A DNA stretch of 64,000 nucleotides from an uncultured Pseudomonadota bacterium (GCA_963770835.1 CAVYRH010000011.1:64001-128000); one strand, 5' to 3'. Positions 27,099-51,940 are shown, counted from the stretch's first letter. Made by a program: numbers and translations. Notes: a model not told the origin generated them from the sequence alone.

Positions 27099-27221
27099 AA
27101 ACGGTCATCCGGTCTCAGGTGCCAGTCAAAGCTGTCACCTGAGATTTTAGACCTAACCTTTCAATTAACCCCCCCAGGAAGAAAAATCTATAAGGTCACA
27201 AATTGTGACCTTAAAAAATGA

Positions 27222-27270
27222 AAAGAGCGCCAAGGCGGCGTTTGATATCCAGGTGGATTTGAAGCTTTAA
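27222..27270 (+). repeat. Short duplicate of the leuA 3' end
   Basis: AAGAGCGCCAAGGCGGCGTTTGATAT...TTGAAGCT-TAA matches 27051-27098. Confidence 0.9.
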
Positions 27271-27348
27271 GCGTATCTTTTAGTGTCACATGCGTGTCAA
27301 ACTCAGTTATGGCTCCTTTGCCAATGTAGGGGTTATAATTTACCCACT

Positions 27349-27654
27349 ATGAGCCCGATGATCACTTTGGACGAATTGGCCTTGGCCGACTTTTGCAAGA
27401 AACGCCATGTCCGAAAGCTTTCGCTTTTCGGGTCAGCGGTGCGTGCCGATTTCAAACCCGGTAGCGACCTCGACCTCTTGGTGGAGTTCGACCCGGGCCA
27501 CACTCCCGGTCTTGCCTTCTTCTCCCTGGCCGAAGAGCTTTCAGCCTTCTTTGGCCGCAAGGTGGATTTAAATACTTCCCGTTCCTTAAGCCCCTACTTC
27601 CGGGACCAGGCTCTTGCCGAGTCCGAAATCCTCTATGACTCGGCACGACCCTAA
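27349..27654 (+). CDS. Minimal nucleotidyltransferase (MNT) antitoxin
   Basis: LFGSAVRADFKPGSDLDLLVEF; GRKVDL. Confidence 0.9.
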   Translation: MSPMITLDELALADFCKKRHVRKLSLFGSAVRADFKPGSDLDLLVEFDPGHTPGLAFFSLAEELSAFFGRKVDLNTSRSLSPYFRDQALAESEILYDSARP

Positions 27655-27985
27655 AGTTTCATTCCTGCAAATGCGGGACACAGTCCAAGAAGTCGTTACC
27701 CTCACCCAGAAGAAAACCCACGACGATCTTCTCAAGGACCGTGTTTTGAACCTTGCCTTAACCCGCCTTTTGGAAGTCCTGGGCGAAGCCGCCACACGCG
27801 TTCCCGAAGAATTCCGCAAGAAATACCCCGGGCTTCCTTGGCAGCAGGTCATCGGGCTAAGAAACAGGCTTATCCACGCCTACGACCAGGTAGACCTCGA
27901 AATCCTTTGGGAAATTGTCTCGGAAGACCTACCACCTTTATCCAAGAATTTGGACCAAATTATTCAAAATTGGGGCGCGGAGTGA
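27635..27985 (+). CDS. HEPN (DUF86) toxin
   Basis: GEAA; PWQQVIGLRNRLIHAY (RX4H motif). Confidence 0.9.
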   Translation: MTRHDPKVSFLQMRDTVQEVVTLTQKKTHDDLLKDRVLNLALTRLLEVLGEAATRVPEEFRKKYPGLPWQQVIGLRNRLIHAYDQVDLEILWEIVSEDLPPLSKNLDQIIQNWGAE

Positions 27986-28148
27986 TAACCATCGCCAACC
28001 GCGACGAGGCCCACGGCCGGGGCGTTTCTACCGACGTCATCGAGGCCTCGGCGAAAGCTTACGTCAACGCGGTCAACAAGCTCATGTTGAAGCACAAGGC
28101 CAAGAGCGCCAAGGCGGCCTTTGATATCCAGAAGGGCTTAAGCTTTAG
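27982..28148 (+). repeat. Long duplicate of the leuA 3' end (~165 bp)
   Basis: Encodes DEAHGRGVSTDVIEASAKAYVNAVNKLMLKHKAKSAKAAFDIQKGL, as at 26951-27092. Confidence 0.95.
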
Positions 28149-28161
28149 TTTTAATTATGAG

Positions 28162-28196
28162 GCCAGGTGAAAAAATATTTTCACCTGGCTTTTTTA
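28162..28196 (+). terminator. Intrinsic terminator
   Basis: GCCAGGTGAAAA/TTTTCACCTGGC followed by a T tract. Confidence 0.8.
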
Positions 28197-28240
28197 CTTC
28201 TCGAAAATCTTTCCAAGCACATAATTGAATAGAGGAATGA

Positions 28241-29359
28241 ATGTTATTAGATCAAATCAAAAAAAATTTATGGTCCATATTAGGTGTTTTCCTCACAATT
28301 TTATTTGGCCTTAGTGGAATTTATTATTACTACAGAGATAAAAAACCTGAAATAACCCTTGAGATTCTGAATGATTCGAATGTTTTGGATGTTCATGAAT
28401 CGTTGAAAGACCTCACTGTTCTTTTTCAAGGGCAGAATATTCAAAAGAATAATTTAAATTTAAAAATGTTGCATGTGAGGATTATTAATTCTGGCGAGAC
28501 AACGATCTTGCAGGATGATTTCGATTCGAATATGGAATGGGGATTAAATATCAATGAAGGAAAGATTATTGAAGCGAGATTTTTGGATGATGAAAGTAAC
28601 TCGACTTATATAAAGGAAAATCTGAAACCCGTATTAATTAGAAGCAATTTTCTTAAATTTCAAAAGGTTATTTTGGAAAAGAAAAAGTATTTTTCTTTTA
28701 ATCTCTTAATACTGCATGAAAAAAATATCAAGGTAACGCCATTTCTATCTGGAAAAATCGCGGGAATAGAAAATTTTATAACATTAAATTCGTACAACAA
28801 TCAGCCTAATCATGAAAATATTATTTTAAAAATTGTTGGTGGGAATTTGTTTGTTCAATTAGCCCGTGTCTTTATTTATTTCTTTTTGGCATTTTTTCTT
28901 ATGATTGGAATTGCATTGGTGCTGGTTCTGTTTGATGAAAAAAAAGAAAAGAAACAAAAAGAAAAAAGAAAAGTTTTAATAGAAAAGTTGTTTCCGGTTG
29001 GCACTAGAGAAGATTTTAATTATTTTATGGACGCATATGTTGAGGATGGTTTTGGAGGACTCTCTGCTGTAAATAAAAACTTCTCTGAACCCAACAAACT
29101 ATATGAAGATTTTTCTGTTTATCTTTTAGACGTTCCCACGGAGAAGTACATAAAAAGAAAAATTCATAGTATGGTCGGAGGTCGGCCTGATAGTGAGCGA
29201 ATTGTCGATTATTATTTCTTGACCGGTAAAATTTTGAGTGAATTGAAGAAACTTAATGAAGCGAAAATGGAAAATGAAACTATAGTTATTGATCAAAAGC
29301 AAAAATCATTTCTTTTGGAAATGATTGAGGCCATTAAAAATAGTGGAGAAAATTGCTGA
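28241..29359 (+). CDS. Hypothetical AT-rich membrane-anchored protein
   Basis: 372-aa ORF, two TM regions, GAGGA RBS. Confidence 0.7.
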   Translation: MLLDQIKKNLWSILGVFLTILFGLSGIYYYYRDKKPEITLEILNDSNVLDVHESLKDLTVLFQGQNIQKNNLNLKMLHVRIINSGETTILQDDFDSNMEWGLNINEGKIIEARFLDDESNSTYIKENLKPVLIRSNFLKFQKVILEKKKYFSFNLLILHEKNIKVTPFLSGKIAGIENFITLNSYNNQPNHENIILKIVGGNLFVQLARVFIYFFLAFFLMIGIALVLVLFDEKKEKKQKEKRKVLIEKLFPVGTREDFNYFMDAYVEDGFGGLSAVNKNFSEPNKLYEDFSVYLLDVPTEKYIKRKIHSMVGGRPDSERIVDYYFLTGKILSELKKLNEAKMENETIVIDQKQKSFLLEMIEAIKNSGENC

Positions 29360-29371
29360 AAAGTTAAATGA

Positions 29372-29860
29372 AGCTCTCGTAAAGTTTTTCATTTAGATGG
29401 TTACAATTCCGGACCACAAGTCATCGAAGATAATGGGAAAGAAGAGATTGTCGATTTTAGAAATTCTTTTATTGATGCTTGTGAAGGTTGCCAGACGTGT
29501 TATGAAATCGCTTATCAATGGGACGGCAAAACGTTCATTCCTTCCAAGAGTTCTTTCGACGAATGTGTTGTTGAATATGATAAAAGTTACGACGACGAGA
29601 AGCACAAGGATGACCACATCAAAAAAGCTTTCGAACTGTTTAAGGAATATTTAAAAAACAATCCCAACAGTTTCGCTGCCGCTTATAACCTTTATGGATT
29701 AAGCCGGGATTTGGGTTTGAAAGATGAAGAAAAAAAGTATAAAGAATTGTCTTTGAAAATCGGTTTACAAAATCCGGAAGGGCCGCATTGGAATAGTCCT
29801 GATATGTCTTGGCAAAAGCAAAACCAATCAAGCCTTATCCAACAGTTATCGGAAGAATAA
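29372..29860 (+). pseudogene. 5'-truncated AT-rich gene remnant with a TPR-like helix
   Basis: 163-codon open frame lacking a start near its 5' end (…FELFKEYLKNNPNSFAAAYNLYG…QLSEE*). Confidence 0.55.
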
Positions 29861-29884
29861 AGTTTTGAAAAGGGTAAAAGCCTT

Positions 29885-29910
29885 GTCCACGACGGGGACC
29901 CATCGTGGAC
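29885..29910 (+). repeat. Palindromic array site 1 (intron-occupied)
   Basis: GTCCACGACGGGGACCCATCGTGGAC. Confidence 0.9.
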
Positions 29911-30463
29911 ATCGTGCCAGAGGAGGGTTTGCAGAGCCAGCAGGTGAGGGAGTAGGCCGATGAGGGTCAACCCAAGTCCTGACCAGGTAATCACCAGAGA
30001 GCCTGGAAGTCAGCCCCCGGCGTAGGATCGAGAGGTCCTGCCCGAAACGGGGTCATAAACCTCATTTAGTGAGGGAACAATCCAGCAGTCCGCAACATCA
30101 AGTGAATCCTGCCGCTTCGTGAATGGGACACCGAAAGGTGCAAGGGGATGCCGAGCCGCGTGTCTACTGGCGAAGGCCACGATCCCGCTGAAGAATCTGG
30201 TAGCAAGCGGGGCAAGTCCTCCGGAGTATGGGGAACGGAATGTTGGAAAGGCTATGCAAGCAAGCTGGGAGATCCTACCCGCCAAAAGACTTGCCGCTAT
30301 AAGGCTAAAACCGAAAAGAGGCAAGGGTGGGAGGAAGTCGGAGGGGGTCACAGTACCGATGAAGGGGTGGACAACAAAACCACCCTGAGGGAAGGACCCC
30401 TGCTTCAACCATGTGTCTCAAAGAAGGTAGGCGCTGGAGCATGCCCCAAAAGGGCCAACAACT

Positions 30464-31986
30464 GATATGAATGAGCCAGTCAAGCCCGCTGGTTTTTCCT
30501 TTGGTTTTATCCTACTCTTTTCCACCTCAAGGCCCTGCGAAAAGCCCTGATCTCGAAAGCCCGGCTTGTTTCGACGATGAATCAAACTGATATTCGCGTG
30601 TTAGACCCATTGCTGGTTCCAGGGACGCAAGATTTTCATTCGTCGGGAGCTGCCTCGATCTCTGATCGTGGGTCGTCGCAGGCTTAGGCCTTTGCGCCAC
30701 AGAGTTGTACCGAGGGTTCTCCAAATCGTTGCCAAGCTTCCGGAAACAGGGTTCTTCCTTCATGACCTTGTTAAACCATTCCTGTTGTTTCCTGGGCGAT
30801 GGCCCACACAAATCCAGCCAACTCCCGGGCTACGGCCACCACTACTTTTTGGATGGGCTTGTTACGTTGGGTCATTTTTAGAAACTTTTTGTACAGACGA
30901 TCCTGTGCTCTGCGGGCGATCTTTAAAATCTCCACCGGACAACCCTCCCGCCTTTTTTCTAAAACCACGCCGACCGACTTCCCATGGCGGTAACTCCAAG
31001 CCGATTCCACAAGAATCCGTCTCAAATGGGCGTTCCCGGTCTTGGTGATTCCTCCCCGACGGATTTTTCCACCTGAACTGCTTTCACATATCCCCAAACC
31101 CGCGTAACCCATGAAATTACGAGCGCTCTCAAATCGCCTCAAATCTTGGCCTTCCACCGCCAAGGTCATGGCGCTCAAGGTATCAACCCCTTTCAGGCAC
31201 CTCAAATGCTTGACCAGTTTCCTGTAGGGTTCTTGGCTGGCCATCTCCTCCACTCGGCTCGTCAAACTCCTCAACCGCTCATCTGCCTCTTGCTTCCCGC
31301 GGACATATGCCTCGAAAGTCTCATGCAGTTCCAGAGGTTCGAACTTTTGGGTTTTCAGCCATGCCTCATGGGCTGATCTCCAATTCTTAGCTTCTCGAAA
31401 GATACGACCTTGCCGAAGAAAGAAATTCGACAACCGGTGCCGGGCCTTTTGCCGGTCTTCTAGGGCATCCTCACGAACTCGAACCAGATCCCGACAGGCT
31501 TCCTCTTGGATGGTCGGAACCCGCACTTCCGTCAGCTCTCCCGCCCTCCAAAGACGGGCCAACTTTTCCGCATCTCGGCGGTCTGTCTTCACCCGATCCC
31601 CGGCTTTCACTGGAATTTTCCCAGGGGCGATTACGACGCACTTCAACCCCTTTTGGGTTAATTGCCGGTGGATGTCATATCCACAAGGGCCCGCCTCGTA
31701 CACAAACGTTATTGACCCTCGTCCTTCGTACTTACCCAGCATTTTCCCCAATGCTTTTGGGGTGTTCTCGATTGTAAAAATATCCTTCACATTTTCGGCC
31801 CTAGCCGGCAGGACCGCACCTACCACCGTATCCTTATGGACATCCAACCCGACCACCGTGATATTATTTTCCATGAGCCAGCCCTCCGTATGCGGATAGG
31901 CTCCCTCAAGGAGCAACCCGCGAATTAGGGCCCTTCAACAAGGCCCGTTTTATTTTACGCAGGCCGCTGGCTCATTCATGTTATCT
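30464..31986 (-). mobile_element. IS110-family element, IS1111-type
   Basis: 13-bp subterminal inverted repeats ATGAATGAGCCAG / CTGGCTCATTCAT; CT core at both ends; ends defined by comparison with the uninterrupted intron copies. Confidence 0.9.
30771..31874 (-). CDS. IS110 transposase (DEDD RuvC-like)
   Basis: VGLDVHK; YEAGPCG; KTDRRDA; SSGG...GITKTGN..LR. Confidence 0.93.
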   Translation of the reverse strand: MENNITVVGLDVHKDTVVGAVLPARAENVKDIFTIENTPKALGKMLGKYEGRGSITFVYEAGPCGYDIHRQLTQKGLKCVVIAPGKIPVKAGDRVKTDRRDAEKLARLWRAGELTEVRVPTIQEEACRDLVRVREDALEDRQKARHRLSNFFLRQGRIFREAKNWRSAHEAWLKTQKFEPLELHETFEAYVRGKQEADERLRSLTSRVEEMASQEPYRKLVKHLRCLKGVDTLSAMTLAVEGQDLRRFESARNFMGYAGLGICESSSGGKIRRGGITKTGNAHLRRILVESAWSYRHGKSVGVVLEKRREGCPVEILKIARRAQDRLYKKFLKMTQRNKPIQKVVVAVARELAGFVWAIAQETTGMV

Positions 31987-32271
31987 CTGTAGTACCAAAG
32001 CGCGAGGCCTTTGACAACAGGCACTATGCCGAGCGGCCAAGGGGGAAGTCGAACCTGTAAAGCCGCCGGAGGAGAGGTTGTCGGAAAGCCGTATGATCGA
32101 AAAGGTCACGTACGGTTTGACGAGGGGGCGCTGGAAACGAAGTGATGAGGGAACCTCGTTGGGGCACGGAACCGGAAACGGGGAAACAGATCAAGGAACC
32201 CTCTGCACACCATCGCGCCAGTGCTCTACTCTGCAAGGAAAATTGAAAACGGTTAAGCGCAAAGGAAGGGC

Positions 32272-32859
32272 ATGACAGCAAAACGTAAAAATAGGAATCC
32301 TGCCCCCCAAGTGGGTGGAAGCCCTCTTCGCGGTGGTAACCCAAAATCTGTGCACCTTGACCGAAAGGCCATCTGTTCGATCGACCACGAATGCACGGGT
32401 TGCCCCACTGCCGCGAAAAGCTGCTGCGCCATGTTCGATGTCTGCGTGAGTGAAGCGGAATTAAACCGGATCATCCCGCTTTTGCCTGAAGCGGCCAAGC
32501 TCTGTCCGCATCTCAAAACCGAAAATGGATACGCCAATGTCTTTGAGGAGGCGGAGAAGGGCCAATTTTCCCTCGATACGCATGAAAACGGCCTCTGCGT
32601 CTTCGCGTTCAAGGCCAATGGATTGATCCGTTGTTCCTTGCACGCGGTCGAGGAGAACCTGGGACTGCCCAGGGGGACCGCAAAACCGGCGGTATGCATC
32701 CTTTGGCCGCTGACATTTTCCGAGAAAGGCGATCTCTTGACCCTCCATGATAAGGCGCTGTCCTGTGAGTGCAGTTCCGTCAGAAAGAAACCGTCGGACC
32801 GGATTTCCCCGGACTTACTGGAGACCATCCGGCATTTTGGTGTAGAGGCCTCAACCTAA
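32272..32859 (+). CDS. Cys-rich YkgJ/DUF3109-like protein
   Basis: CTGC...CC; CVF; CSLH; KPAVCILWP. Confidence 0.7.
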   Translation: MTAKRKNRNPAPQVGGSPLRGGNPKSVHLDRKAICSIDHECTGCPTAAKSCCAMFDVCVSEAELNRIIPLLPEAAKLCPHLKTENGYANVFEEAEKGQFSLDTHENGLCVFAFKANGLIRCSLHAVEENLGLPRGTAKPAVCILWPLTFSEKGDLLTLHDKALSCECSSVRKKPSDRISPDLLETIRHFGVEAST

Positions 32860-32869
32860 CTAAGAGGTT

Positions 32870-33002
32870 GTACACGAAGGGGAGTCCCAAGCCCCTGGCT
32901 TGGCGCAGTGGCTTTGGACAGGTTGAAATCCCATCTATATCGGACAGGGCCGTCTTTGGGGTTTCAACACCTGGAAATCCGCCCCTCAACCATTGATTGA
33001 AA
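32870..33002 (+). repeat. Palindromic array site 2 (expanded variant) plus conserved tail
   Basis: GTACACGAAGGGGA-CCAAGCCCCTGGCTTGG-TGGACAGGTTGAAATCCC...ATTGATTGA; tail matches 48944-49022. Confidence 0.8.
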
Positions 33003-33265: not shown

Positions 33266-33766
33266 ATGCTGACTCAAACCAAAAGCTGGTTGGTTTTGTT
33301 GTTGGTCTTAGGAGTGTTGTTGGTCCCGGTTTTTTCAAAAGCCGAACCGGTCTACAAGCCCACCTCCGACGGGGGAAACTTCGGGCTTGGCCTGGAACTG
33401 GGGGAACCCGGTTCCTGGGGCATTGACGGGAAGGTGTGGATCGACCGCGAGAACGCCTTTCAAGGCGCGGTCAAACTGCCGTCCGGTGCGGCTGTTTTGC
33501 AGCTGGATTATCTTTGGCACGACTTCAACCTCATCCACATGAAAAACACCGAGGGTGAATGGCCCTTTTATGTGGGTGTGGGCGGCGACTTGTCCCTTGA
33601 CAGCCCGGCGGCCCTGGGGGCCCGGGTGCCGGTGGGGATGTCGTACATCTTCGACAAGAGGAACGTGCCGGTGGATATCTACCTTCAACTGGTGCCGACC
33701 TTGTGGTTGACCGGTGACACAAGCTTCGACGTTTACGCGGAATTCGGCGCCCATTACTACTTTTAA
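33266..33766 (+). CDS. Hypothetical outer-membrane beta-barrel-like protein
   Basis: Signal peptide; C-terminal YYF. Confidence 0.65.
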   Translation: MLTQTKSWLVLLLVLGVLLVPVFSKAEPVYKPTSDGGNFGLGLELGEPGSWGIDGKVWIDRENAFQGAVKLPSGAAVLQLDYLWHDFNLIHMKNTEGEWPFYVGVGGDLSLDSPAALGARVPVGMSYIFDKRNVPVDIYLQLVPTLWLTGDTSFDVYAEFGAHYYF

Positions 33767-33789
33767 CAAGAAACGACAAGGAGGACGAA

Positions 33790-34074
33790 ATGAACGGGCA
33801 TGAATTGGTCTGGTACCTGATCGTCGGCCTTTTAACCGGCTGGATCTCCAGCCTCCTGGTCCAAGGGCGGGGCATGGGCATGGTCCGGGACACGGCCGTG
33901 GGCATTCTGGGGGCCCTTTTTGGGGGCTGGATGGCGAGGGAACTCGGCATTCCCATCGGCGGGTTTTTCAGCGCCTTGGCCATGGCCATCGTGGGATCGG
34001 TGCTTTTCCTGGTCGTCCTGAGGGCTTGGTTCTTTTCCCGGGGCCGGAAAGTCTGGGTGATCAAAACCAAGTAA
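33790..34074 (+). CDS. GlsB/YeaQ/YmgE family membrane protein
   Basis: LIVGLLTGW...GILGALFGG...AIVGSVLFL. Confidence 0.85.
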   Translation: MNGHELVWYLIVGLLTGWISSLLVQGRGMGMVRDTAVGILGALFGGWMARELGIPIGGFFSALAMAIVGSVLFLVVLRAWFFSRGRKVWVIKTK

Positions 34075-34120
34075 CAAAATCCATCTAGCCCCTTGAAAAG
34101 GGGTCGGGAAGGGGGTTGTT

Positions 34121-34662
34121 ATGATAATAAGACTTTTGATTCTTGGTTTGGTGTGGCTGGGGCTGGCGGCCCAGCCCGGTTTCGGCCAAAGCCTCGGCCT
34201 GGAGGCAGGGGCTAATTTCGCGAACCTGAACGGCAAGGACGTCAACAACGTCGTAGCCTCCCGTTTGGGTATCGTCGGGGGCGGATTCCTCTATTTGCCC
34301 TTAAGCCCAAGCTTGGCTTTCCAGCCGGAGGTCCTTTACGCCCAAAAGGGCGCGAAAACGGCCGACGGAACCACAACCTACCAGTTGGATTACGTGGAGA
34401 TCCCCGTGCTTTTGGAGATTTCCCTGGGCTTGCCGGTAGTCGCCCTGGAATCCTGTTGGGGCCGTCCTTTGACGCCAATGTGGCGTCCAGCGGCCTCTCC
34501 AACGTGGCCCCCGCGGATGTGGGGGTCATCGGGGGCGTTCAAGTCCATTTCGACCCCGTTCTTTTGAGCGGGCGCTACGAGCTGGGTTTGACCAACGTGA
34601 CATCGGACCGGAATTTACAAAACGGAACATTCACCTTCCTGGTGGGGCTGATGTTCCTTTAA
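34121..34662 (+). pseudogene. Porin-family beta-barrel gene with a frameshift near 34445
   Basis: FQPEVLYAQKG...LDYVEIPVL continues in another frame as GPSF...RYELGLTNV...GLMFL; could be a sequencing error. Confidence 0.65.
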
Positions 34663-34734
34663 AAACGACGAAGGGAACCGCCAAGGGCCTTTGTCCTTGG
34701 CGGTTCAAAAGGTTTATGGCTTTGGGGAGGGAAT

Positions 34735-35433
34735 ATGGAAACAACCTCCGGTACGGTTGCAACCGAGCCTTTTCGTTTCTACGAATGCATCCTCATGGTG
34801 AGGCCCTTGGGGATAAGGGCGTTGAACCTGCGCGAATTCCTCTTCGCCTTGAAAAGCGTGGATACGGAATGCATCCATCACCACTTCCACCAGGCCTCGC
34901 TGAAACACCAGTTCGACATCGCCGACTACCCCAGCGATTTCGCCCAATGGGCCGCCCTGCTGCTGGAGGACGCCGCGCTGGGTGAAAAACTCGGCAACCT
35001 GAATCCCTACCACTTCGAAAGCCTGGACTTGCTGAAGGAAAACCTGCTGGAAATCGTGGAGGACCACCTTTTCGATTCACCTTTCGTGCCCTCGGCCAAA
35101 CCGGGAATGGAATTCCACTTTTGCTCCGACACGACCCTGGTGGTGGACACGGGCCGGGAAGTGCGGACCTTGAGCCAGTTCCGGCAGTCTCTGGAACACG
35201 TGGACAACAGCTCCCTTTACTACCATTTCTACGAATCCCGGTTCCGGCTGCCGGGCACCCACTCGGACGATTTTTCGAATTTTTTCGAGAAGTCCCTGGG
35301 CTTGGCCGGCCTGGCCCAGGCCGTGAGGTCCATGGAGATTTATTTCACCCGGCTTAAGGAAGTGCGGGCCGGCCTGATGAACCTGGTGGACCAGGAGCTG
35401 GGACGCAGTCAATCGAAGGAGGGGATGCCATGA
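34735..35433 (+). CDS. DUF5752-like protein associated with TreT
   Basis: EPFRFY; SDFAQW; SSLYYHFYESR. Confidence 0.7.
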   Translation: METTSGTVATEPFRFYECILMVRPLGIRALNLREFLFALKSVDTECIHHHFHQASLKHQFDIADYPSDFAQWAALLLEDAALGEKLGNLNPYHFESLDLLKENLLEIVEDHLFDSPFVPSAKPGMEFHFCSDTTLVVDTGREVRTLSQFRQSLEHVDNSSLYYHFYESRFRLPGTHSDDFSNFFEKSLGLAGLAQAVRSMEIYFTRLKEVRAGLMNLVDQELGRSQSKEGMP

Positions 35434-42527: not shown

Positions 42528-42556
42528 AAAAATAGGTTCAATCATCACAGAACTTT

Positions 42557-42582
42557 GTCCATGAAGGGGACCCATCGTGGAC
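42557..42582 (+). repeat. Palindromic array site 6 (empty)
   Basis: GTCCATGAAGGGGACCCATCGTGGAC. Confidence 0.85.
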
Positions 42583-42644
42583 AGGTATGGGTCATCAGAA
42601 AATGAAACATTGATGTCTAACAAATAGGAGCAAGTGTTAACTAA

Positions 42645-43382: not shown

Positions 43383-43397
43383 AAAAATGATTCACCT

Positions 43398-43423
43398 GTC
43401 CACGGCGGGGACCCGTCGTGGAC
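43398..43423 (+). repeat. Palindromic array site 7 (intron-occupied)
   Basis: GTCCACGGCGGGGACCCGTCGTGGAC. Confidence 0.9.
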
Positions 43424-45405
43424 ATCGTGCCAGGAACAAGGGTGTAGAAGCCAGCAGGTGAGGCTTGATATAAGCCGAGTCCTGACGGGGTAACCGCCTG
43501 AGGGCCCCGAAGTCAGCCTCCGTGGCAAGGTCGAGAGGCCTTGCCCGAAACGAGGTCATAAACCTTCGATTAGGAAGGGAACAATCTTACAGTCCGCAAC
43601 ATCAAGTGAATCCTGCCGCGTCGTGAAGAGTCCGCCGAAAGGCGTAAGAGGAGGCCGAGCCTCGTGTCCACGGGCGAAGGCAACAATCTCACCCTCAATA
43701 CAGGATGGGGTGGGGCGAATCCTCCGGCGTATAGGGAACGGAATGTGGGAAAGGCTGCTACATCAACCTGGGAGATCCTACCCGCCAAAAGACTTGCCGC
43801 TATAAGGCTAAAACCGAAAAGTGGTAAGGGTGGGAGGAAGTCGGAGGGGGCAGTAGTACCGATGAAGGGAAGACAACAAAACTTCCCGGAGGGAAGGGCC
43901 CCTGCTTCAACCAAGCAACCAAAAGAAGTGGAGCATGGAGAATGCCTGAAAAGGCTAACAACTCAGAAGACCAAGTGCGCCAATTCCAGAGGGAGCTATA
44001 TCGAGCGGCCAAGAGGAGCCCGAACCGACGCTTTCATGCGTTATACGACAAGCTCACCCGGTGGGACGTGCTTGTGGAGTCATGGAATCAGGTAAGGGCA
44101 AACCAAGGGCATGGTGGGGTGGATGGAAAGAGTTTGGAGGATATAGAGAAAGAGGGTGTAGGACTCTTTCTCCGGCAAATCCGGGAAGAACTCAGAGCGG
44201 GGACGTATCGGCCACAACCGGTCAAGCGGGTAGAAATACCGAAACCGGATGGCGGAAAGCGGCCACTTGGAATACCGGTTATTCGGGATCGTGTGGTACA
44301 AGCCGCCTGTCGTAAGATGGTCGAACCTATTTTTGAGGCAGATTTCCTGGAAGGTTCCTATGGCTTTCGGCCCAAGCGTTCAGCACATCAAGCTCACGAG
44401 GAAATCCTGAAATGGATAGATCGTGGGTGCAGATTTGTGGTGGATGGAGATATTCGAAAATATTTCGACTCCATTGACCATGCCAAGCTGATGGTGCTGA
44501 TGTGTCAAAGGATCAGTGACAAGAAGATTTTGGAACTCATCCAAAGGTGGCTCGAAGCGGGGGTATTGGCGGAAGGTAGGCTTATGCCCACCTCCGAAGG
44601 TACTCCTCAAGGTGGGGTGATTTCCCCATTACTTTCCAATATTTTCCTTCACCTGTTAGACAAGGTCTGGAACAAAAGATACAAGCAACTTGGAAAACTG
44701 GTGCGTTACGCTGACGATTTTGTGGTGTTATGTCCAACACAACAAAAGGCGGAAGAAAGTCTGAAGGTGCTCAAGAGATTACTTGGGCGGTTGGGGTTGG
44801 AAATGCACCCAGAAAAGACGAGGCTGGTGGAAATGGGACCAGGAAAGGATGGTTTTGATTTCCTTGGTTTCCATTACAGGATATGCCGACCCAATAAGAA
44901 GAGGGGAAAAGCATACATCAAAAGCTGGCCCAAGCGTAAATCCATGGAGAAGATCACTGAGAGGATAAAAGCGGTGACTTCGGAGAAATGGCGGCTGTCG
45001 CTTTCAATGGAAGAATTGGTAAAAACTCTGAATCCGATTTTGAGGGGTTGGGCCAATTATTTCAAAGTGGGGACAAGCTGGAAACAGTTTGATAAGGTGG
45101 ATTTATTTACATACCGAAGGCTATTGTTATTCCGAAGGCGAAAGCATCGTCAGAGGATAATGAATTGGTCGGGGGTCGAAGATGAATTCAAAAGGTTAGG
45201 CCTGTATCGGCTATCTAGACGTGCCATTGTTGCTTGAATGCCGCCGAAATAAAGGTTGTCGGAAAGCCGTATGATCGAAAAGGTCACGTACGGTTTGATG
45301 AGGGGGCACTGGAAACGTGGTTATGAGAGCCGGACTGAGGCCCAATTCGAAAGGGTTGGATTAGCCACCGTACTCTAATGCATACGCGCCAGTGCTCTAC
45401 TCTGC
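43424..45405 (+). mobile_element. RT-encoding group II intron
   Basis: Ribozyme domains around an RT ORF; domain V at ~45263-45296; domain VI ends CTCTACTCTGC. Confidence 0.93.
43942..45237 (+). CDS. ltrA: Group II intron reverse transcriptase/maturase without an endonuclease domain
   Basis: RPLGIP..RDRVVQ; GTPQGGVISPLLSN; YADD; FDFLGF; LRGWANYF; no HNH domain. Confidence 0.95.
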   Translation: MPEKANNSEDQVRQFQRELYRAAKRSPNRRFHALYDKLTRWDVLVESWNQVRANQGHGGVDGKSLEDIEKEGVGLFLRQIREELRAGTYRPQPVKRVEIPKPDGGKRPLGIPVIRDRVVQAACRKMVEPIFEADFLEGSYGFRPKRSAHQAHEEILKWIDRGCRFVVDGDIRKYFDSIDHAKLMVLMCQRISDKKILELIQRWLEAGVLAEGRLMPTSEGTPQGGVISPLLSNIFLHLLDKVWNKRYKQLGKLVRYADDFVVLCPTQQKAEESLKVLKRLLGRLGLEMHPEKTRLVEMGPGKDGFDFLGFHYRICRPNKKRGKAYIKSWPKRKSMEKITERIKAVTSEKWRLSLSMEELVKTLNPILRGWANYFKVGTSWKQFDKVDLFTYRRLLLFRRRKHRQRIMNWSGVEDEFKRLGLYRLSRRAIVA

Positions 45406-45462: not shown

Positions 45463-45852
45463 ATGATCCTAAAATTCCGAACACCTCTTTTGATCACTTT
45501 TGCAATTATCACTGGTTACTTCTGGACCGTTCCAAATATTTTTTTCATGATTTTTAGCAATTTGCTACCGGTCCTGATTATTGCCTTTGGGGTAGTTCTT
45601 CTTTTTCGCGATATGTCCTGGAACCGACAAGCATTGCTCGTGGTTTTCTTTCTCGTCCTGGCTGAGTTCGCCAGAGATACCTTCGTTTGCCTTTTTACCA
45701 ATGGGTGGGCTCAAATGATAGCTAATGGGAATTGGAAGACTTATATCAGAATGTTTGGGGTTCAGGTTGTTGTTGGCCTTGTCGCATGGGGAACAGTGAA
45801 ATTGTTCTTAAAAGTCATTGAACACAAACGGTTTAAACCTAGTAGGCGATAA
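45463..45852 (+). CDS. Hypothetical membrane protein
   Basis: Four hydrophobic segments. Confidence 0.6.
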   Translation: MILKFRTPLLITFAIITGYFWTVPNIFFMIFSNLLPVLIIAFGVVLLFRDMSWNRQALLVVFFLVLAEFARDTFVCLFTNGWAQMIANGNWKTYIRMFGVQVVVGLVAWGTVKLFLKVIEHKRFKPSRR

Positions 45853-45897
45853 AACGGCTTTGATTTTTTCAAAGATTTAATCCGGTCGAAAAACCTT

Positions 45898-45923
45898 GTC
45901 CACGATGGGGACCCGTCGTGGAC
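45898..45923 (+). repeat. Palindromic array site 8 (intron-occupied)
   Basis: GTCCACGATGGGGACCCGTCGTGGAC. Confidence 0.9.
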
Positions 45924-46724
45924 ATCGTGCCAGAGGAGGGTTTGCAGAGCCAGCAGGTGAGGGAGTAGGCCGATGAGGGTCAACCCAAGTCCTGACCAGG
46001 TAATCACCAGAGAGCCTGGAAGTCAGCCCCCGGCGTAGGATCGAGAGGTCCTGCCCGAAACGGGGTCATAAACCTCATTTAGTGAGGGAACAATCCAGCA
46101 GTCCGCAACATCAAGTGAATCCTGCCGCTTCGTGAATGGGACACCGAAAGGTGCAAGGGGATGCCGAGCCGCGTGTCTACTGGCGAAGGCCACGATCCCG
46201 CTGAAGAATCTGGTAGCAAGCGGGGCAAGTCCTCCGGAGTATGGGGAACGGAATGTTGGAAAGGCTATGCAAGCAAGCTGGGAGATCCTACCCGCCAAAA
46301 GACTTGCCGCTATAAGGCTAAAACCGAAAAGAGGCAAGGGTGGGAGGAAGTCGGAGGGGGTCACAGTACCGATGAAGGGGTGGACAACAAAACCACCCTG
46401 AGGGAAGGACCCCTGCTTCAACCATGTGTCTCAAAGAAGGTAGGCGCTGGAGCATGCCCCAAAAGGGCCAACAACTCTGTAGTACCAAAGCGCGAGGCCT
46501 TTGACAACAGGCACTATGCCGAGCGGCCAAGGGGGAAGTCGAACCTGTAAAGCCGCCGGAGGAGAGGTTGTCGGAAAGCCGTATGATCGAAAAGGTCACG
46601 TACGGTTTGACGAGGGGGCGCTGGAAACGAAGTGATGAGGGAACCTCGTTGGGGCACGGAACCGGAAACGGGGAAACAGATCAAGGAACCCTCTGCACAC
46701 CATCGCGCCAGTGCTCTACTCTGC
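45924..46724 (+). mobile_element. ORF-less group II intron, copy 2 (801 nt)
   Basis: Ribozyme domains retained, RT ORF deleted. Confidence 0.92.
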
Positions 46725-46782: not shown

Positions 46783-47064
46783 ATGACGAAAGCTCTAAAA
46801 ACTAAGGAAGAACGCATCGAACTGAGGGTAAGGCCCCAGGATAAGCGGTTATTGGAAAAAGCCGCCCAGGCCCAGGGTTTGAGCCTGAGTTCCTATCTCG
46901 TGACGCGGTCCCTCCATGCGGCCCAGGAAGACGCGATCCCGGTTAAAACCTATGTTCCGCCTAAACGGGACCTGGACTTATTCCTAAGGCTTCTGGAAAA
47001 CCCTCCCGAGCCTAACGAAAAGCTTAAAGCGGCGGCACGGCGTTACCAAAAAGAGATATCCTAA
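46783..47064 (+). CDS. DUF1778 ribbon-helix-helix antitoxin
   Basis: ERIELRV...LEKAA...SLSSY; LENPPEPNEKL. Confidence 0.88.
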   Translation: MTKALKTKEERIELRVRPQDKRLLEKAAQAQGLSLSSYLVTRSLHAAQEDAIPVKTYVPPKRDLDLFLRLLENPPEPNEKLKAAARRYQKEIS

Positions 47065-47073
47065 TCTGCCGTT

Positions 47074-47589
47074 ATGACAGGCCAAAAATGGAAGTTTGTC
47101 CCTATCACGGAAAAACCGAATCTCGAAGCTTTTGACTGTGGCATTTCTGAACTCAATGATTATCTGAAAAAATACGCAGGCCAGAACCACCGCAAGGGGT
47201 TAGGAAGCACTTATGTCCTCATTCCCGTCGAAGGAGAACCCATCGCGGCTGGTTATCACACCTTGAGCATGGCTCAGGTGGAATTGCGTTCGTTGCCAGA
47301 ACCCCAACGTAAAAACCTCCCGAAGTATCCAATTCCCGCCGTTCGATTGGGACGCCTTGCCGTTGACTGCCAATGGCAAGGAACCGGATTGGGGGAGATG
47401 TTGCTGATGGATGCTATTCACCGGTCTGTTGCCGCCGTCCAATCGGTGGCCGCGAAGTATATGATCGTCGATGCCAAAAACAAAAAAGCTGAGGAATTTT
47501 ATTTACGTTACGGGTTTCAACCCTTTGAGGGCGGTTCACACTCATTAGTAGCGGCCATCGATACGTTAAAGGGACTTTTCACGAAATGA
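47074..47589 (+). CDS. GNAT acetyltransferase toxin (AtaT/TacT-like)
   Basis: FDCGI.ELNDYL; PIPAVRLGRLAVD...QGTGLG; VDAKN..A..FY..YGF. Confidence 0.9.
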   Translation: MTGQKWKFVPITEKPNLEAFDCGISELNDYLKKYAGQNHRKGLGSTYVLIPVEGEPIAAGYHTLSMAQVELRSLPEPQRKNLPKYPIPAVRLGRLAVDCQWQGTGLGEMLLMDAIHRSVAAVQSVAAKYMIVDAKNKKAEEFYLRYGFQPFEGGSHSLVAAIDTLKGLFTK

Positions 47590-47606
47590 AACGAGTGGTT
47601 AAGGCT

Positions 47607-47632
47607 GTCCACGACGGGGACCCGTCGTGGAC
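47607..47632 (+). repeat. Palindromic array site 9 (intron-occupied)
   Basis: GTCCACGACGGGGACCCGTCGTGGAC (perfect stem). Confidence 0.9.
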
Positions 47633-48433
47633 ATCGTGCCAGAGGAGGGTTTGCAGAGCCAGCAGGTGAGGGAGTAGGCCGATGAGGGTCAACCCAAGTC
47701 CTGACCAGGTAATCACCAGAGAGCCTGGAAGTCAGCCCCCGGCGTAGGATCGAGAGGTCCTGCCCGAAACGGGGTCATAAACCTCATTTAGTGAGGGAAC
47801 AATCCAGCAGTCCGCAACATCAAGTGAATCCTGCCGCTTCGTGAATGGGACACCGAAAGGTGCAAGGGGATGCCGAGCCGCGTGTCTACTGGCGAAGGCC
47901 ACGATCCCGCTGAAGAATCTGGTAGCAAGCGGGGCAAGTCCTCCGGAGTATGGGGAACGGAATGTTGGAAAGGCTATGCAAGCAAGCTGGGAGATCCTAC
48001 CCGCCAAAAGACTTGCCGCTATAAGGCTAAAACCGAAAAGAGGCAAGGGTGGGAGGAAGTCGGAGGGGGTCACAGTACCGATGAAGGGGTGGACAACAAA
48101 ACCACCCTGAGGGAAGGACCCCTGCTTCAACCATGTGTCTCAAAGAAGGTAGGCGCTGGAGCATGCCCCAAAAGGGCCAACAACTCTGTAGTACCAAAGC
48201 GCGAGGCCTTTGACAACAGGCACTATGCCGAGCGGCCAAGGGGGAAGTCGAACCTGTAAAGCCGCCGGAGGAGAGGTTGTCGGAAAGCCGTATGATCGAA
48301 AAGGTCACGTACGGTTTGACGAGGGGGCGCTGGAAACGAAGTGATGAGGGAACCTCGTTGGGGCACGGAACCGGAAACGGGGAAACAGATCAAGGAACCC
48401 TCTGCACACCATCGCGCCAGTGCTCTACTCTGC
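47633..48433 (+). mobile_element. ORF-less group II intron, copy 3 (801 nt)
   Basis: Appears identical to copy 2. Confidence 0.92.
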
Positions 48434-48466
48434 AAATTCTAATAATAATTCTGTAAGGAGTTGCAA

Positions 48467-48895
48467 GTGAGTTCAACATGGTTCTTTGTCTTATTAACCA
48501 CGCTCTCTTTTGGATTCTTTAATATTTTCATTCGGGCCGCGGGTCCGAAAATTGGCGGGGTTTTGGGGCCGCTGGTTGTTGAGGGATTTGCGATGGCCGT
48601 TCTCTTACTTTTTTTCATTTGGCGAAAGTTTAATGGGTCGGTAGAGTCAGCAACGGCCATGGGGTTGACATTTTCAATGGCCGCCGGATTTTGCGCCGCC
48701 GCCGGTTCGATTGGGTTTTTTATCGTCTTTTCAAGGGGAGGCCAGCTTTCGGTGGCAGGCTCCTTTGTTTTAATCGGGAGCACCATGCTAACGATATTGG
48801 GTGGGTTTATCCTTTTTAAGGAACCGATCAACGCTCATCGTATAGTTGGGATCATTTTGGGACTTATCAGCCTTTACCTTTTGCGGGTGGAATAA
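48467..48895 (+). CDS. EamA/DMT family transporter
   Basis: AAGGAG RBS with GTG start; ILFKEPINAHRIVGIILG. Confidence 0.8.
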   Translation: MSSTWFFVLLTTLSFGFFNIFIRAAGPKIGGVLGPLVVEGFAMAVLLLFFIWRKFNGSVESATAMGLTFSMAAGFCAAAGSIGFFIVFSRGGQLSVAGSFVLIGSTMLTILGGFILFKEPINAHRIVGIILGLISLYLLRVE

Positions 48896-48917
48896 GCAAA
48901 TCGACGGATTTGATATT

Positions 48918-49120
48918 GTCCACGACGGGGAACCATTGTGGATAGGTTGAAATCCCTTTAATACCTGGCAGGGCCGTCCTTTGGGTTCCAACACCGCCAA
49001 ATTCTCCCAATCTATTGATTGAATAGACGCTCTTAGCCCGGCAAATCTTAGCTATCCCCAATCGCCCGGCTTGGCTATAAAATACCGCAAGTTTTCGGGT
49101 TTTCCTGTCAGCTGTTAACT
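48918..49120 (+). repeat. Palindromic array site 10 plus full tail and duplicate of the recN upstream region
   Basis: GTCCACGACGGGGAACCATTGTGGAT-AGGTTGAAATCCC...ATTGATTGAATA...GGCAAATCTTAGCTATCCC...TATAAAATACCGCAAGTTTTCGGGT. Confidence 0.88.
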
Positions 49121-49141: not shown

Positions 49142-50431
49142 ATGGCGGTATTTTTTCTGGTCTTGGGTGTCATCGTCGCGGCCGTTGCCCTTCGCTTTTT
49201 CGTCGGGGCCGGGTCGAAAAACAAGAAAGGCAGTCTCCTTGTCTTTTCCTGGGGCGACATCGAGGAAAACCAGGTCCTGAGCGATCTCATCAATGACTTC
49301 ATGAAATTAAATCCGTCCGTGTCGGTCTCGTTGCAGCGCACCCCTTATGTCAATTACTCGGAAACCGTAGTGAGATCCCTTGAGGGACGGGGCCCGGACG
49401 TCCTATTTGTGGAGGTCAATAATTTCGCCGATTTTTTGTACCAAAAAGTCCTGGAACCCTTGGATTCTTACGTCAAAACCGACCGCCTGGATATGACGGA
49501 TTTTTACCCGGCCGTATTGGACCGCTTCACCTCGGAGAAACGAACTTACGTCATTCCCCGCGACACGGCCCCCTGGTGCCTTGTTTATTACAATAAGTCC
49601 GCCTTTGACGAAGCCAATGTGCCTTATCCAAAGGATGATTGGAATTGGGACCAATTCGCCGAAGCGGCGATGAAGGTCCAAAAAATAGGCGCTTCGGGCG
49701 GGGTCATGCGCTGGGGGTTCATTGACGACAAGACCCTTCCGAGCGCGTGGATTTTTAGCGCGGGCGGGACCTTCGCGGACGACGTTCACCAACCCACCCG
49801 ATGGACCTTCACGGACGACCCGGCCACCCTCAAGGGGATCCGGTTCCGTTACGACTTGATCCATAAGTACAAGGTCTCCCTGGCGCCCTCCAAAATAGCC
49901 GGTTTTACCGTGAGCGAAGGCTCGGACATGTTCCGCTTCGGCACGGCCGCCATGTACCTTTCGGGTTTGAAATGGCCCCCCCACTTTCGCGAGATCAAAA
50001 ATTTTAAATGGGATGTGGCCATGCTTCCCAAGGGACCCGGCGGGGAACGGGCCTTTTCCACCGGGGGCTCGGGTTACGGTATTTCGAGGCGATCCGGGAA
50101 CAAACCAACAGCTTGGGAATTGGTGAAATTCCTGACCGGCGCGGAAGCCGAACGAAAAAGGCTGGCCACTGGATTGGCCCAGCCCGCCTTAAGGAAGATG
50201 GCTTATTCCGACCTTTTCCTGGACCGGAATGACCCCTTGAACAAGAAAATTTTGATCGATGCGGTGGAGCACGTTAAATATTTTCCCCTGTGCGGCAATT
50301 GGCAGGAGGTGGAGACCCTGATCACGGCCGGTTTGGAAAACGTGTGGGAGGGGAAGGAAACCCCCGAGGCGGCCATGGATAAATTGCGGCCCCTCCTCCT
50401 GAAGCATCCGCCCCTCACCGTTCCAAAGTGA
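49142..50431 (+). CDS. Sugar ABC transporter substrate-binding protein, no permeases adjacent
   Basis: PDV; YYNKSAFDEANVPYP..DWNW; AWELVKFL. Confidence 0.85.
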   Translation: MAVFFLVLGVIVAAVALRFFVGAGSKNKKGSLLVFSWGDIEENQVLSDLINDFMKLNPSVSVSLQRTPYVNYSETVVRSLEGRGPDVLFVEVNNFADFLYQKVLEPLDSYVKTDRLDMTDFYPAVLDRFTSEKRTYVIPRDTAPWCLVYYNKSAFDEANVPYPKDDWNWDQFAEAAMKVQKIGASGGVMRWGFIDDKTLPSAWIFSAGGTFADDVHQPTRWTFTDDPATLKGIRFRYDLIHKYKVSLAPSKIAGFTVSEGSDMFRFGTAAMYLSGLKWPPHFREIKNFKWDVAMLPKGPGGERAFSTGGSGYGISRRSGNKPTAWELVKFLTGAEAERKRLATGLAQPALRKMAYSDLFLDRNDPLNKKILIDAVEHVKYFPLCGNWQEVETLITAGLENVWEGKETPEAAMDKLRPLLLKHPPLTVPK

Positions 50432-50460
50432 AATTTGAGGTTGGAGGGCCAATGGAACGC

Positions 50461-50512
50461 TTGCTTTCCGTTTGGAAGGGATTTAATATATTGTTACTCA
50501 ATTAAGTAACAA
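50461..50512 (+). promoter_or_regulatory. Putative TA promoter and operator
   Basis: TTGCTT-17-TAATAT followed by the palindrome TTGTTACT-6-AGTAACAA. Confidence 0.55.
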
Positions 50513-50522
50513 AGGAGTTCCC

Positions 50523-50777
50523 TTGAAATTCGTGAATATGCGCGACTTGCGCTTGAAAACCCCCTCGGTGATGAAGGGCGTGGAAAAAGGGGAAAAATAC
50601 ATCATTACGAACCATGGAAAGCCCCAGGCCGTCCTGCTGCACCTGACTGAGGACGAAATCGAGGATTTGGTTTATAAGCAACCCGAGTTCATGGACCAAA
50701 TAGAGGAGTCGAGGAAGGAATACGGAAAGAAAGGCGGGGTTCCGCTTTCGGAAGCCCGCAAGCGGCTGGGACTCTGA
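50523..50777 (+). CDS. Phd/YefM antitoxin
   Basis: VNMRDLR...IITNHGKPQAVL. Confidence 0.88.
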   Translation: MKFVNMRDLRLKTPSVMKGVEKGEKYIITNHGKPQAVLLHLTEDEIEDLVYKQPEFMDQIEESRKEYGKKGGVPLSEARKRLGL

Positions 50778-50778
50778 C

Positions 50779-51051
50779 TTGTCCCTCCTCGTTGAGCTTT
50801 CACCCCGTGCCTTGAGGGATTTGAAGGCCTTTGAAAAAGCCGCGGCAGGGGAAATCCTGGACGGCCTGAAAATCCTCCAAACCCGCCCTTGGCCCGGCCC
50901 TCCCCGAGTAAAAAAACTAGAAGGTTATAAGAATCTTTATCGTTTGAGAATCGGGAATTACAGGTGCCTTTTCGAACCCACTGAAAAGGGAGTGGTTGTT
51001 TTGCGTGTCCTGGACCGAAAAGAACTGGAAAGAATCCTGAGGAATCTTTAA
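50779..51051 (+). CDS. RelE/ParE family toxin
   Basis: ALRDL; VKKLEG..LYRLRIGNYR. Confidence 0.88.
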   Translation: MSLLVELSPRALRDLKAFEKAAAGEILDGLKILQTRPWPGPPRVKKLEGYKNLYRLRIGNYRCLFEPTEKGVVVLRVLDRKELERILRNL

Positions 51052-51068
51052 AGGACGTGAAATGGTTT

Positions 51069-51190
51069 GTCCACGACCTGTCTCCCAACCCGCCTACCTT
51101 AGCCGCCTGTCTCCAGAAGCTTTAGCGAAGGGAGACGGCGACGGTAGGAGTTTTAGTGCAGGGGGAAGCTCGATGAAAGTGGGGCGTACA
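51069..51190 (+). repeat. Palindromic array site 11, left arm with nested REP-like inserts
   Basis: GTCCACGACCTGTCTCC..., similar to site 4; right arm degraded. Confidence 0.65.
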
Positions 51191-51364
51191 AAGTTGATTT
51201 AACTTGGTAACGGCTCGAGCCCCAAGTTACAATGCCGATAGAGTTTTTTCCCTCCGACGACTGCCCTCGTTCAGGCGAAATTAAATCCTAATCAATACAC
51301 TTGTTCCTTGGATATTGCCAAAAAGAAATAAGGCATTATTTTGACCGAAAGGAGGTAAACGGTT

Positions 51365-51820
51365 TTGAGTTTAGAACCTGGCCAACCCTACATGCTTGTC
51401 GGGGAAAATGACCCCGAGGCCCAAATGTCTCTGAAAAAAACGATGCAGCGGGCCGACGCACAGGACGAAATGGTTTTTGTGCGGAACGGAAAGGAAATCA
51501 TCGAGTTCCTCGACAAAGCCCTGTCCACACCCAAGACCCGCCACCGCCTGCCCTATTGCATCATCCTCAACTTGAATATGCCGCTTTTGAACGGGAAACA
51601 AACGCTCCAAATCCTGAAGGACCATCCCGAATTCAACGGTATCCAAGTCATCATTTTATCGGTCACAAAACCAAAATTTGACGTGGTTGCCTGTTACAAG
51701 CTGGGTGCCTATGCCTTTTTACAGAACCCTTCCGATCTCGGAAATTTGGTGCACATTGTTACAACCCTCCGCGAAGCGGTGCTCCCTAAACCAATTAACC
51801 GGCCCCCATCCATTGATTGA
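51365..51820 (+). CDS. Degenerate single-domain response regulator
   Basis: Rcp1-like fold, but ILNLNMP has Asn at the phosphoacceptor position and the conserved KP reads NP. Confidence 0.7.
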   Translation: MSLEPGQPYMLVGENDPEAQMSLKKTMQRADAQDEMVFVRNGKEIIEFLDKALSTPKTRHRLPYCIILNLNMPLLNGKQTLQILKDHPEFNGIQVIILSVTKPKFDVVACYKLGAYAFLQNPSDLGNLVHIVTTLREAVLPKPINRPPSID

Positions 51821-51940
51821 ATAGGCGCCCCTGGCCGGGCAAATCTTAGCTATCCCAATCCGCCCGCCTTGGCTATAAAATACCGCAAGTTTTCGGGTTT
51901 CCCTGTCAGCCGTCAAGCGCCAACTGTGGACCGGTGTCAA

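Follow-up and report, generated by a model that had tools for sequence, protein, structure and literature searches.

What moves the genes that lie between leuA and recN in this uncultured soil bacterium? The stretch of DNA analysed here (GCA_963770835.1, CAVYRH010000011.1:64001-128000; 64,000 nt, hereafter the window) comes from a genome that is 96 % complete and belongs to candidate division FCPU426, which also holds the closest named relatives of the genome's Xer-like gene. At 27099..51940, it carries a row of genes punctuated by copies of one 28-bp palindrome, in which two 13-bp arms surround a central GA. The original prediction, made from the sequence alone, read this row as an integron-like cassette array built on a site other than attC, lacking an integrase and served in trans or by a resident group II intron reverse transcriptase (RT). 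Our analysis indicates that the cassette system is real and of an undescribed kind, and that the palindrome is almost certainly a cassette-exchange platform with its crossover near the centre. The row in the window is probably an integrase-less satellite array, the sites of which have been exchanged by a naturally short form of large serine recombinase, the gene for which lies on another contig; we infer this enzyme from the comparisons set out below.

Eleven co-oriented copies of the palindrome had been reported, each 4–45 bp after a stop codon. A copy or remnant is present at all 11 positions, with true starts one base lower (29884, 32869, 39318, 41383, 41786, 42556, 43397, 45897, 47606, 48917 and 51068); only seven are intact 28-mers according to a weight matrix built from the whole genome (29884, 41786, 42556, 43397, 45897, 47606 and 48917), while three are split by insertions and one is reduced to its left half. 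Matches with at most three mismatches occur at six places in the window and in none of 100 shuffles. Ten of the 11 sites lie 3–44 bp 3′ of the stop of a same-strand open reading frame (ORF), whereas site 29884 lies 23 bp past the stop of a 159-codon open frame without a clear start. The cargo is on the + strand, as claimed, the exception within the row being the − strand IS110 transposase inside the first intron. It is also as unrelated and as diverse in composition as had been stated, with a G+C range of 0.30–0.62 and families that include TMEM175, an MTHFR-like protein, a major facilitator superfamily (MFS) transporter, a solute-binding protein, trehalose enzymes, three toxin–antitoxin pairs and several unknowns. 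The description of the row as gene-plus-palindrome units holds for many one-gene cassettes, but the intervals 32921-39317, 39370-41382 and 48945-51067 each contain several genes and no internal site, so not all units are of this type. No tyrosine or serine recombinase is encoded within the window, in agreement with the predicted lack of an integrase.

Within the window the site is confined to the array, as proposed; genome-wide there are 88 copies in 24 clusters. Adjacent sites are co-oriented in 62 of 64 pairs, and 74 of the 88 sites lie within 80 bp of a same-strand stop codon (241 of 1760 control positions). Among 44 intron-free intervals of up to 2.2 kb, 33 contain one ORF and eight contain two, and 41 have forward ORFs only. 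A site lies a median of 27 bp past the preceding stop codon and 55 bp ahead of the next start codon, so the cassettes have little room for promoters. The sites are thus clustered and co-oriented and, as described below, they mark breakpoints, rather than being scattered behind ordinary genes as a generic repetitive extragenic palindrome (REP). The 18-base left part of the site was detected in 21 of 24 family genomes, in the single genome of the same order and in none of 15 other members of the phylum, as well as in at least 153 metagenome stretches; viral contigs returned no exact match to this 18-base pattern.

Cassettes, each consisting of the right arm of a site, one or more genes and the left arm of the following site, change neighbours at these sites. 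Four copies of an 863-bp unit are 100 % identical from site to site, and their known neighbours are of three different kinds upstream and two downstream (one of the four copies is at a contig edge); a block of 766+963 bp has different neighbours at both ends on contigs C15 and C17. In this genome and in genomes G004 and G014, a cas1–cas2 unit is preceded by sites that share their right arm but not their left arm or flank, and homologues of the TMEM175, TacA–TacT and MTHFR-like cassettes of the window are found behind or between sites elsewhere. No RNA run was among those listed as holding the sequence. Contigs from four DNA runs (two studies) covering 32240-43425 at ≥99 % contained no circular or skipped-cassette joint; since contigs drop rare forms, this absence is no evidence either way.

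To locate the exchange, we pooled 349 distinct site contexts and compared pairs sharing one flank, leaving sites followed by the same intron out of the downstream-flank pairs; the pairs are non-independent, and an IS110 insertion accounts for one pair per set. The 26 pairs with only the downstream flank in common differ at 25 left-arm and five right-arm positions (random expectation ~26 and ~81), while the ten pairs with only the upstream flank in common differ at two left-arm and 23 right-arm positions (~10 and ~31). Left arms therefore travel with upstream DNA and right arms with downstream DNA, placing the exchange near the centre of the 13-GA-13 palindrome, with a bracket at positions 11–18. 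The central GA is kept in 342 of 349 contexts. At position 16, 38 of 364 contexts are variant; this variation goes chiefly with that at positions 17, 18 and 24 and more weakly with that at 13. The same position-16 variant can be found beside different left arms, which places the crossover probably to the left of position 16 and fits a 2-bp core better than a 6-bp core. Positions 12–15 vary in 3–6 of 364 contexts and positions 19–22 in 116–182, such that the right arm is conserved near the crossover and 8–13 bp from the centre and variable at 4–7 bp. Ten of 47 divergent left arms are the reverse complements of observed right arms, so the arms are interchangeable. Duplication of the whole site by a Cas1- or transposase-like activity was excluded, as the two sites around one cassette differ reproducibly.

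Could the palindrome act instead as a folded single strand? The consensus forms a 12-bp hairpin (−14.4 kcal/mol), and the genome encodes two Y1 genes with a helix-turn-helix domain (Y1+HTH) and nine IS200-type HUH genes; furthermore, most site-rich genomes lack the short recombinase. The site might accordingly be a passive REP-like repeat or hairpin, processed single-stranded by some IntI-like or HUH enzyme, with the short recombinase as a passenger. We regard this as improbable. The inner stem is broken in a third to half of the copies, the copy at 41786 hardly folds (−3.1 kcal/mol), and compensatory pairing is no better than chance (one, four, five and six compensated cases at pairs 7/22 to 10/19, among 108–170 right-arm variants). 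Arms that segregate each with their own flank likewise argue against it. IntI was not found: the best TIGR02249 match scored 44.6 bits against a cut-off of 265, and none of 12 genome matches passed. As had been claimed, the site lacks both a U-tract and the core boxes of attC: a U-tract follows the hairpin at three of 88 sites, unlike in an intrinsic terminator, and the boxes, in the pattern of the original prediction, lie within 90 bp at three of 88 sites compared with 15 of 1760 random places. According to a report on attC (PMC8946536), these sites are conserved as a folded single strand and little in sequence; here, in contrast, sequence conservation is strong and compensatory change does not exceed chance across 349 contexts. 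An Rfam scan returned group II intron matches only. In REP/RAYT systems, the repeats are clustered around the RAYT transposase gene. The suggested search for a co-occurring recombinase or HUH enzyme yielded a short serine recombinase abutting the site; on the HUH side, no site occurs in the 16 kb around one of the two Y1+HTH genes, and the other is ~69 kb from the nearest listed site.

A second double-stranded reading is that the site is an 11-6-11 dif-like sequence and that the cassettes are moved by the host's single Xer-like tyrosine recombinase, as are the pdif modules of Acinetobacter. A length of 28 bp is compatible with 11-6-11, and the 11–18 bracket accommodates the 6-bp core of a tyrosine-type enzyme. 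The lone Xer-like gene (C11:156053-157114), in which catalytic motifs are visible, is present in 23 of 24 family genomes, the one genome of the order and none of 15 beyond (E≤1e-40), a distribution almost equal to that of the site; however, any order-wide core gene would share it. Neither a site nor its left half was found near this gene in 29 of 29 loci, which counts against the lone Xer with an 11-6-11 site. In dif sites the inner arms are conserved and the centre varies (PMC6449649); the present site shows the opposite pattern, with an invariant centre and variation in the inner right arm. In addition, going by the title of a reference cited there, pdif modules are flanked by inversely oriented sites, whereas 62 of 64 neighbours here are direct repeats. 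Taken together, this makes the dif-like reading unlikely. No XerC and XerD pair was found in the host; its 12 PF00589 tyrosine recombinases comprise six paralogous phage-type enzymes, a tandem trio, one Xer-like protein and two others, and only one of the 12 lies <2 kb from a site. The family seems to have a single Xer-like recombinase (L011), the gene of which is preceded by a short palindrome and followed by a longer stretch, both of them conserved. The six phage-type integrases are 55–80 % identical to one another (C5:233293, C5:241386, C10:70275, C1:7319, C2:210370 and C26:882152).

The candidate that we favour is the product of the only PF00239 gene in the genome, a protein of 275 amino acids (aa) encoded on contig C17 (C17:12078-12905) that contains PF00239 and PF07508 only, both over the cut-off. 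Its gene points towards an array and its stop codon is 15 bp from the last site of that array. The protein is of the large-serine type without the zinc ribbon and coiled coil, and its predicted fold matches the SPbeta, Bxb1 and phiC31 integrases, in a mediocre structure model (predicted local distance difference test 65.5, predicted template-modelling score 0.43) used for family assignment only. The 19 closest sequence clusters are all 275–283 aa long and 68–100 % identical, followed by a gap to ≤59 %; in a quick tree they form one branch (Shimodaira–Hasegawa-like approximate likelihood ratio test, 99) apart from 41 other matches, many of them longer. Full-length relatives run on into the zinc ribbon and coiled coil, and all 19 clade members stop before this point. 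The nearest full-length relatives (45–55 % identity) presumably end at tRNA-gene fragments. A search of 50 %-representatives returned mostly full-length relatives, with no second short clade recognisable by length alone. Among the five intact genes, ratios of non-synonymous to synonymous substitution rates (where dS is finite; dS ≥0.7) are 0.02–0.07 for the catalytic domain and 0.08–0.29 for the recombinase domain, indicating that the short form is maintained by purifying selection and is not a decaying fragment.

All nine short-form loci in which the 3′ end can be seen have a site 9–39 bp past the stop, in constant orientation. Five of these genes are intact (in genome G020 an intron interrupts the site), three are fragments and one is a remnant of 26 residues. 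Among 25 PF00239 loci in the family a site is present within 1.5 kb in five of five short-form loci and in none of 20 others, two of which are N-terminal pieces cut at contig ends. The enzyme-proximal arm is common to several loci and the DNA on the far side differs, as expected of an active insertion point. An ArdC gene adjoins the intact short recombinase in three of the five loci and a RadC gene in two, and arrays on contig C12 lie beside a conjugative coupling protein. In the structure of the Listeria LI integrase (PMC3783163), the recombinase domain spans 13 bp of each half-site and contacts bases 9–11 counted from the crossover, the zinc domain reads bases 16–24, and deletion of the coiled coil yields an enzyme that excises any pair of sites. 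On this structure, a two-domain protein would need 13+2+13 bp and would lack directionality, and the site has that size. Recombination at the site by the 275-aa protein is likely, as a prediction from sequence.

Several observations weigh against this assignment. An intact short recombinase was found in only five of 31 family genomes, and genomes G002, G012, G018 and G023, with 17–39 site matches at 89–99 % completeness, have no PF00239 match at all, such that most arrays would be orphans. A site beside the enzyme could also mean a long-lived passenger. Both the tyrosine-type core that fits the crossover bracket and the distribution of the Xer-like gene, given above, count here as well. Some of the within-genome duplicates may be strain variants in the assembly (3.65 % contamination), although cassettes change neighbours between genomes too, and not only among such duplicates. 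Finally, in the LI integrase (PMC3783163), deletion of the coiled coil abolished intermolecular integration and deletion of the zinc domain weakened binding ~25-fold, leaving the insertion step unexplained in a short-enzyme model.

Under the serine-recombinase reading, a recombinase dimer would bind the two 13-bp arms through its recombinase domains and cut around the GA. Loss of the zinc ribbon and coiled coil, which impose attP×attB directionality, would permit any site to recombine with any other; cassettes lying between direct repeats would then be excised as circles made up of right arm, gene and left arm and be inserted at any other site, with the asymmetric GA keeping their orientation. 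The enzyme may travel on conjugative or integrative elements, as its ArdC and RadC neighbours hint, and may seed or reshuffle chromosomal rows in trans, including the enzyme-less row of the window. The predicted platform for gene shuffling at a non-attC site served in trans was borne out as far as neighbour switching, the missing IntI and a best enzyme candidate on another contig are concerned. We lean towards a broader proposal, though with more reserve: that this is a second, independently evolved integron, in which a phage-type serine integrase minus its directionality domains, now a 275-aa, cofactor-free and reversible recombinase, shuffles one symmetrical 28-bp site and, borne by conjugative elements, seeds dozens of rows and moves cassettes, including a whole Cas1–Cas2 module, between genera of the family.

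The system works like an integron, yet integrons, pdif modules and canonical serine integrases are each defined by features that it lacks. With integrons, sedentary chromosomal integrons among them (PMC8946536), and with CALIN, the term for integrase-less attC clusters (PMC7923331), it shares co-oriented rows of mostly one-gene cassettes with little promoter room and a palindromic site after each, toxin–antitoxin cargo, rows of which some have a recombinase gene at one end and others are orphans with no enzyme, group II introns and IS110 as parasites of the site, and cassettes that change neighbours there. However, the site here is short, of fixed length and conserved in sequence rather than structure, it has no attC core boxes, and its crossover is central rather than at the edge; IntI is lacking, and the candidate enzyme is a serine recombinase encoded convergently at the downstream end. 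The large serine integrases of Listeria LI/A118, Bxb1, phiC31 and SPbeta (PMC3783163, PMC5499577) likewise combine catalytic and recombinase domains with a YxRxS motif and have 13-bp half-sites around a central dinucleotide, but the present clade ends after the recombinase domain (275–283 aa) and its putative substrate is one symmetrical site type in dozens of copies, not an attP/attB pair. The pdif modules of Acinetobacter, moved by XerC/XerD (PMC6449649), are similar in that 28-bp sites bound accessory modules, often toxin–antitoxin pairs, with the enzyme supplied in trans, and differ in their reversed conservation and inverted repeats, against direct repeats here and one Xer-like gene that is never beside a site.

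We found no description of such a system in the literature searched, which included the listed FCPU426 matches and had subscription journals outside its reach. Integrons, the textbook gene-capture platform, depend on IntI and a folded attC, and tools built on these would miss it. If the proposal is true, cassette capture has a second evolutionary origin, in a serine integrase combined with a simple site of double-stranded DNA, and ~90 sites per genome furnish much of the lineage's accessory genes. It would also amount to a natural experiment on the idea that serine integrases owe their one-way action to the zinc ribbon and coiled coil, and would supply genome engineering with a very small candidate recombinase. 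Comparison demonstrates the exchange of cassettes, and the role of the enzyme is directly testable in Escherichia coli.

Group II introns lie directly 3′ of four window sites: two are ORF-less, one is ORF-less with an IS110 inside and one encodes an RT. This arrangement, including one intact RT, raised the idea that cassettes are made or moved through reverse transcription by an intron RT, and a parallel exists in group IIC-attC introns, which insert into the attC sites of integron arrays (PMC3001079). The idea is largely refuted and we hold it to be very improbable. In each of the 14 copies of the commonest intron family, the 5′ end comes after a site, whether intact or damaged. The first two bases of the intron follow only 13 of 349 site contexts, and the sites that flank the precisely duplicated cassettes are free of introns, with a single end as the exception. 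A homologue of the TacA–TacT cassette stands behind an empty site in genome G018, where the junction produced by in silico removal of intron 45925-46724 is also found, and retrotransposition would leave the exchange of arms at the site centre unexplained. The introns are instead passengers or parasites of the site, inserting at the right edge of an existing copy, and ORF-less copies of 800 bp have spread at 100 % identity. They resemble group IIC-attC introns in homing to a cassette recombination site and differ in their top-strand insertion at the right edge of a non-attC site. IS110 elements insert at the edge of the site in either orientation; introns, IS110 and small repeats may all use the site as a safe landing spot.

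Some further observations concern these insertions. The four window introns (29912-32234, 43425-45405, 45925-46724 and 47634-48433) appear to start two bases before GTGCC and to end in TGC; the usual 3′ end of a group II intron is AY. A second RT element, encoding a 455-aa RT, sits in the site centre on the opposite strand at C3:3661-3680, C11:1951-1970, C20 ~2075-2093 and C24 ~24237-24256, and in G020 (L337), such that some sites have been hit by two different introns. A small hairpin-rich repeat follows base 10 of the site in four places (window 41393-41456 and 51078-51190; C5:308128 and C5:317909).

The cas1–cas2-like pair, which directly follows a site at three places in this genome and also in G004 and G014, raises the last alternative, namely that the 28-mer is a repeat of the type found in clustered regularly interspaced short palindromic repeat (CRISPR) arrays, duplicated by a solo Cas1–Cas2 that inserts gene-sized spacers. 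We give this reading next to no credence. The pair has its own 37-bp repeat (27 copies), near-identical Cas1 is present in only two of 24 family genomes besides this one, and the sites flanking one cassette differ and their arms segregate separately, which repeat duplication would not produce. Cas1 as the driver was rejected; the pair behaves as a cassette. Copies of the cas1 and cas2-like pair were noted in this genome (G000) at C15:15755-17230 (−), C16:36000-37475, C3:47195-48670 and C3:60721-61875 (L013, L021-L027), near 100 % identical to those in two other genera. The CRISPR-like repeats are mostly co-oriented, with pieces of 0.1–12 kb between them that start and end mid-gene, including a piece of cas1, and are found in seven of 31 family genomes; no ordinary CRISPR array was found alongside them.

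The features of the row, all on the + strand unless stated otherwise, can now be followed from leuA (25512-27098) to recN (51953-53656). The 5′ part of the island (27099..29860) has no site and contains duplicated leuA 3′ ends, an MNT–HEPN pair, an AT-rich gene of 372 aa and the 159-codon frame. The intact sites below were recovered by both motif match and weight matrix, except that at 41786..41813, which was recovered by the weight matrix. The first (29884..29911) is followed at its right edge by an ORF-less group II intron (29912..32234) interrupted by IS110 (~30464-31984; transposase 30771-31916, −), after which come a cargo gene with a weak, under-cut-off match to DUF3109 (32272..32859) and a site split by a 24-bp palindromic insertion (32869..32920, 52 bp in total). 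A site-free block (33266..39316) encodes membrane proteins, DUF5752, TreT-type and GT20 trehalose enzymes, a receiver–PAS protein and a small ORF, and ends at a second site split by a 24-bp palindromic insertion (39318..39369, 52 bp). An MFS transporter and a 111-aa ORF (39638..41370) precede a site with a 64-bp insertion after base 10 (41383..41474), resembling the insertion in two contig C5 sites.

A run of one-gene cassettes then encodes a 101-aa ORF without known family (41468..41773), followed by the intact site at 41786..41813; a TMEM175 channel (41859..42527) that has a homologue (75 % identical) between sites on a metagenome contig (L219/L220), followed by the intact site at 42556..42583; and an MTHFR-like protein (42645..43382), followed by the intact site at 43397..43424. 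The intron with an RT/maturase ORF (43425..45405; ORF 43942-45237) comes next, with a 129-aa membrane ORF without known family (45463..45852), an intact site (45897..45924) and an ORF-less intron (45925..46724). The TacA–TacT (GNAT) toxin–antitoxin cassette (46783..47589), with a 78 % homologue after the intron-free site in G018, is followed by an intact site (47606..47633) and another ORF-less intron (47634..48433). A one-gene cassette for a 144-aa membrane protein (48461..48895), the 3′ part of which recurs (92 %) ahead of a C15 site, precedes an intact but diverged site (48917..48944). The row closes with a solute-binding protein and a Phd–ParE toxin–antitoxin pair (49142..51051), the left ten bases of a site followed by an insertion, with the right half gone (51068..51190), and a receiver-domain gene preceding recN (51365..51820). 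PADLOC matched one of 28 cargo proteins (the MNT of the MNT–HEPN pair), giving no sign of mainly defence cargo, and the 16 promoters predicted in 27000-46000 exceed the shuffled value of 11.6±3.1 by an uninformative margin.

A comparison of the leuA–recN interval across relatives had been proposed; in relatives with both genes on long contigs they are not neighbours (different contigs, or ~700 kb apart), so the interval is not comparable as a unit, and the window array sits on a rearrangement junction. Among 20 leuA or recN flanking stretches of relatives, sites occur only in G002, of the same genus, with four co-oriented sites 3′ of leuA and no cargo in common with the window, and in G004, 11–39 kb upstream of recN. 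The leuA 3′ end (26942-27098) is repeated twice downstream (27223-27270 and 27993-28149), around the MNT–HEPN pair, and G002 has two such extra copies around other genes. Similarly, DNA from upstream of recN is repeated before cargo genes behind sites (window 39387-39513, 49006-49132 and 51804-51945). On contig C15 of G000 (~23730-23937), a site is followed by this recN-upstream module and then by an apparent recN start, which suggests either a copied promoter module or an original target of insertion.

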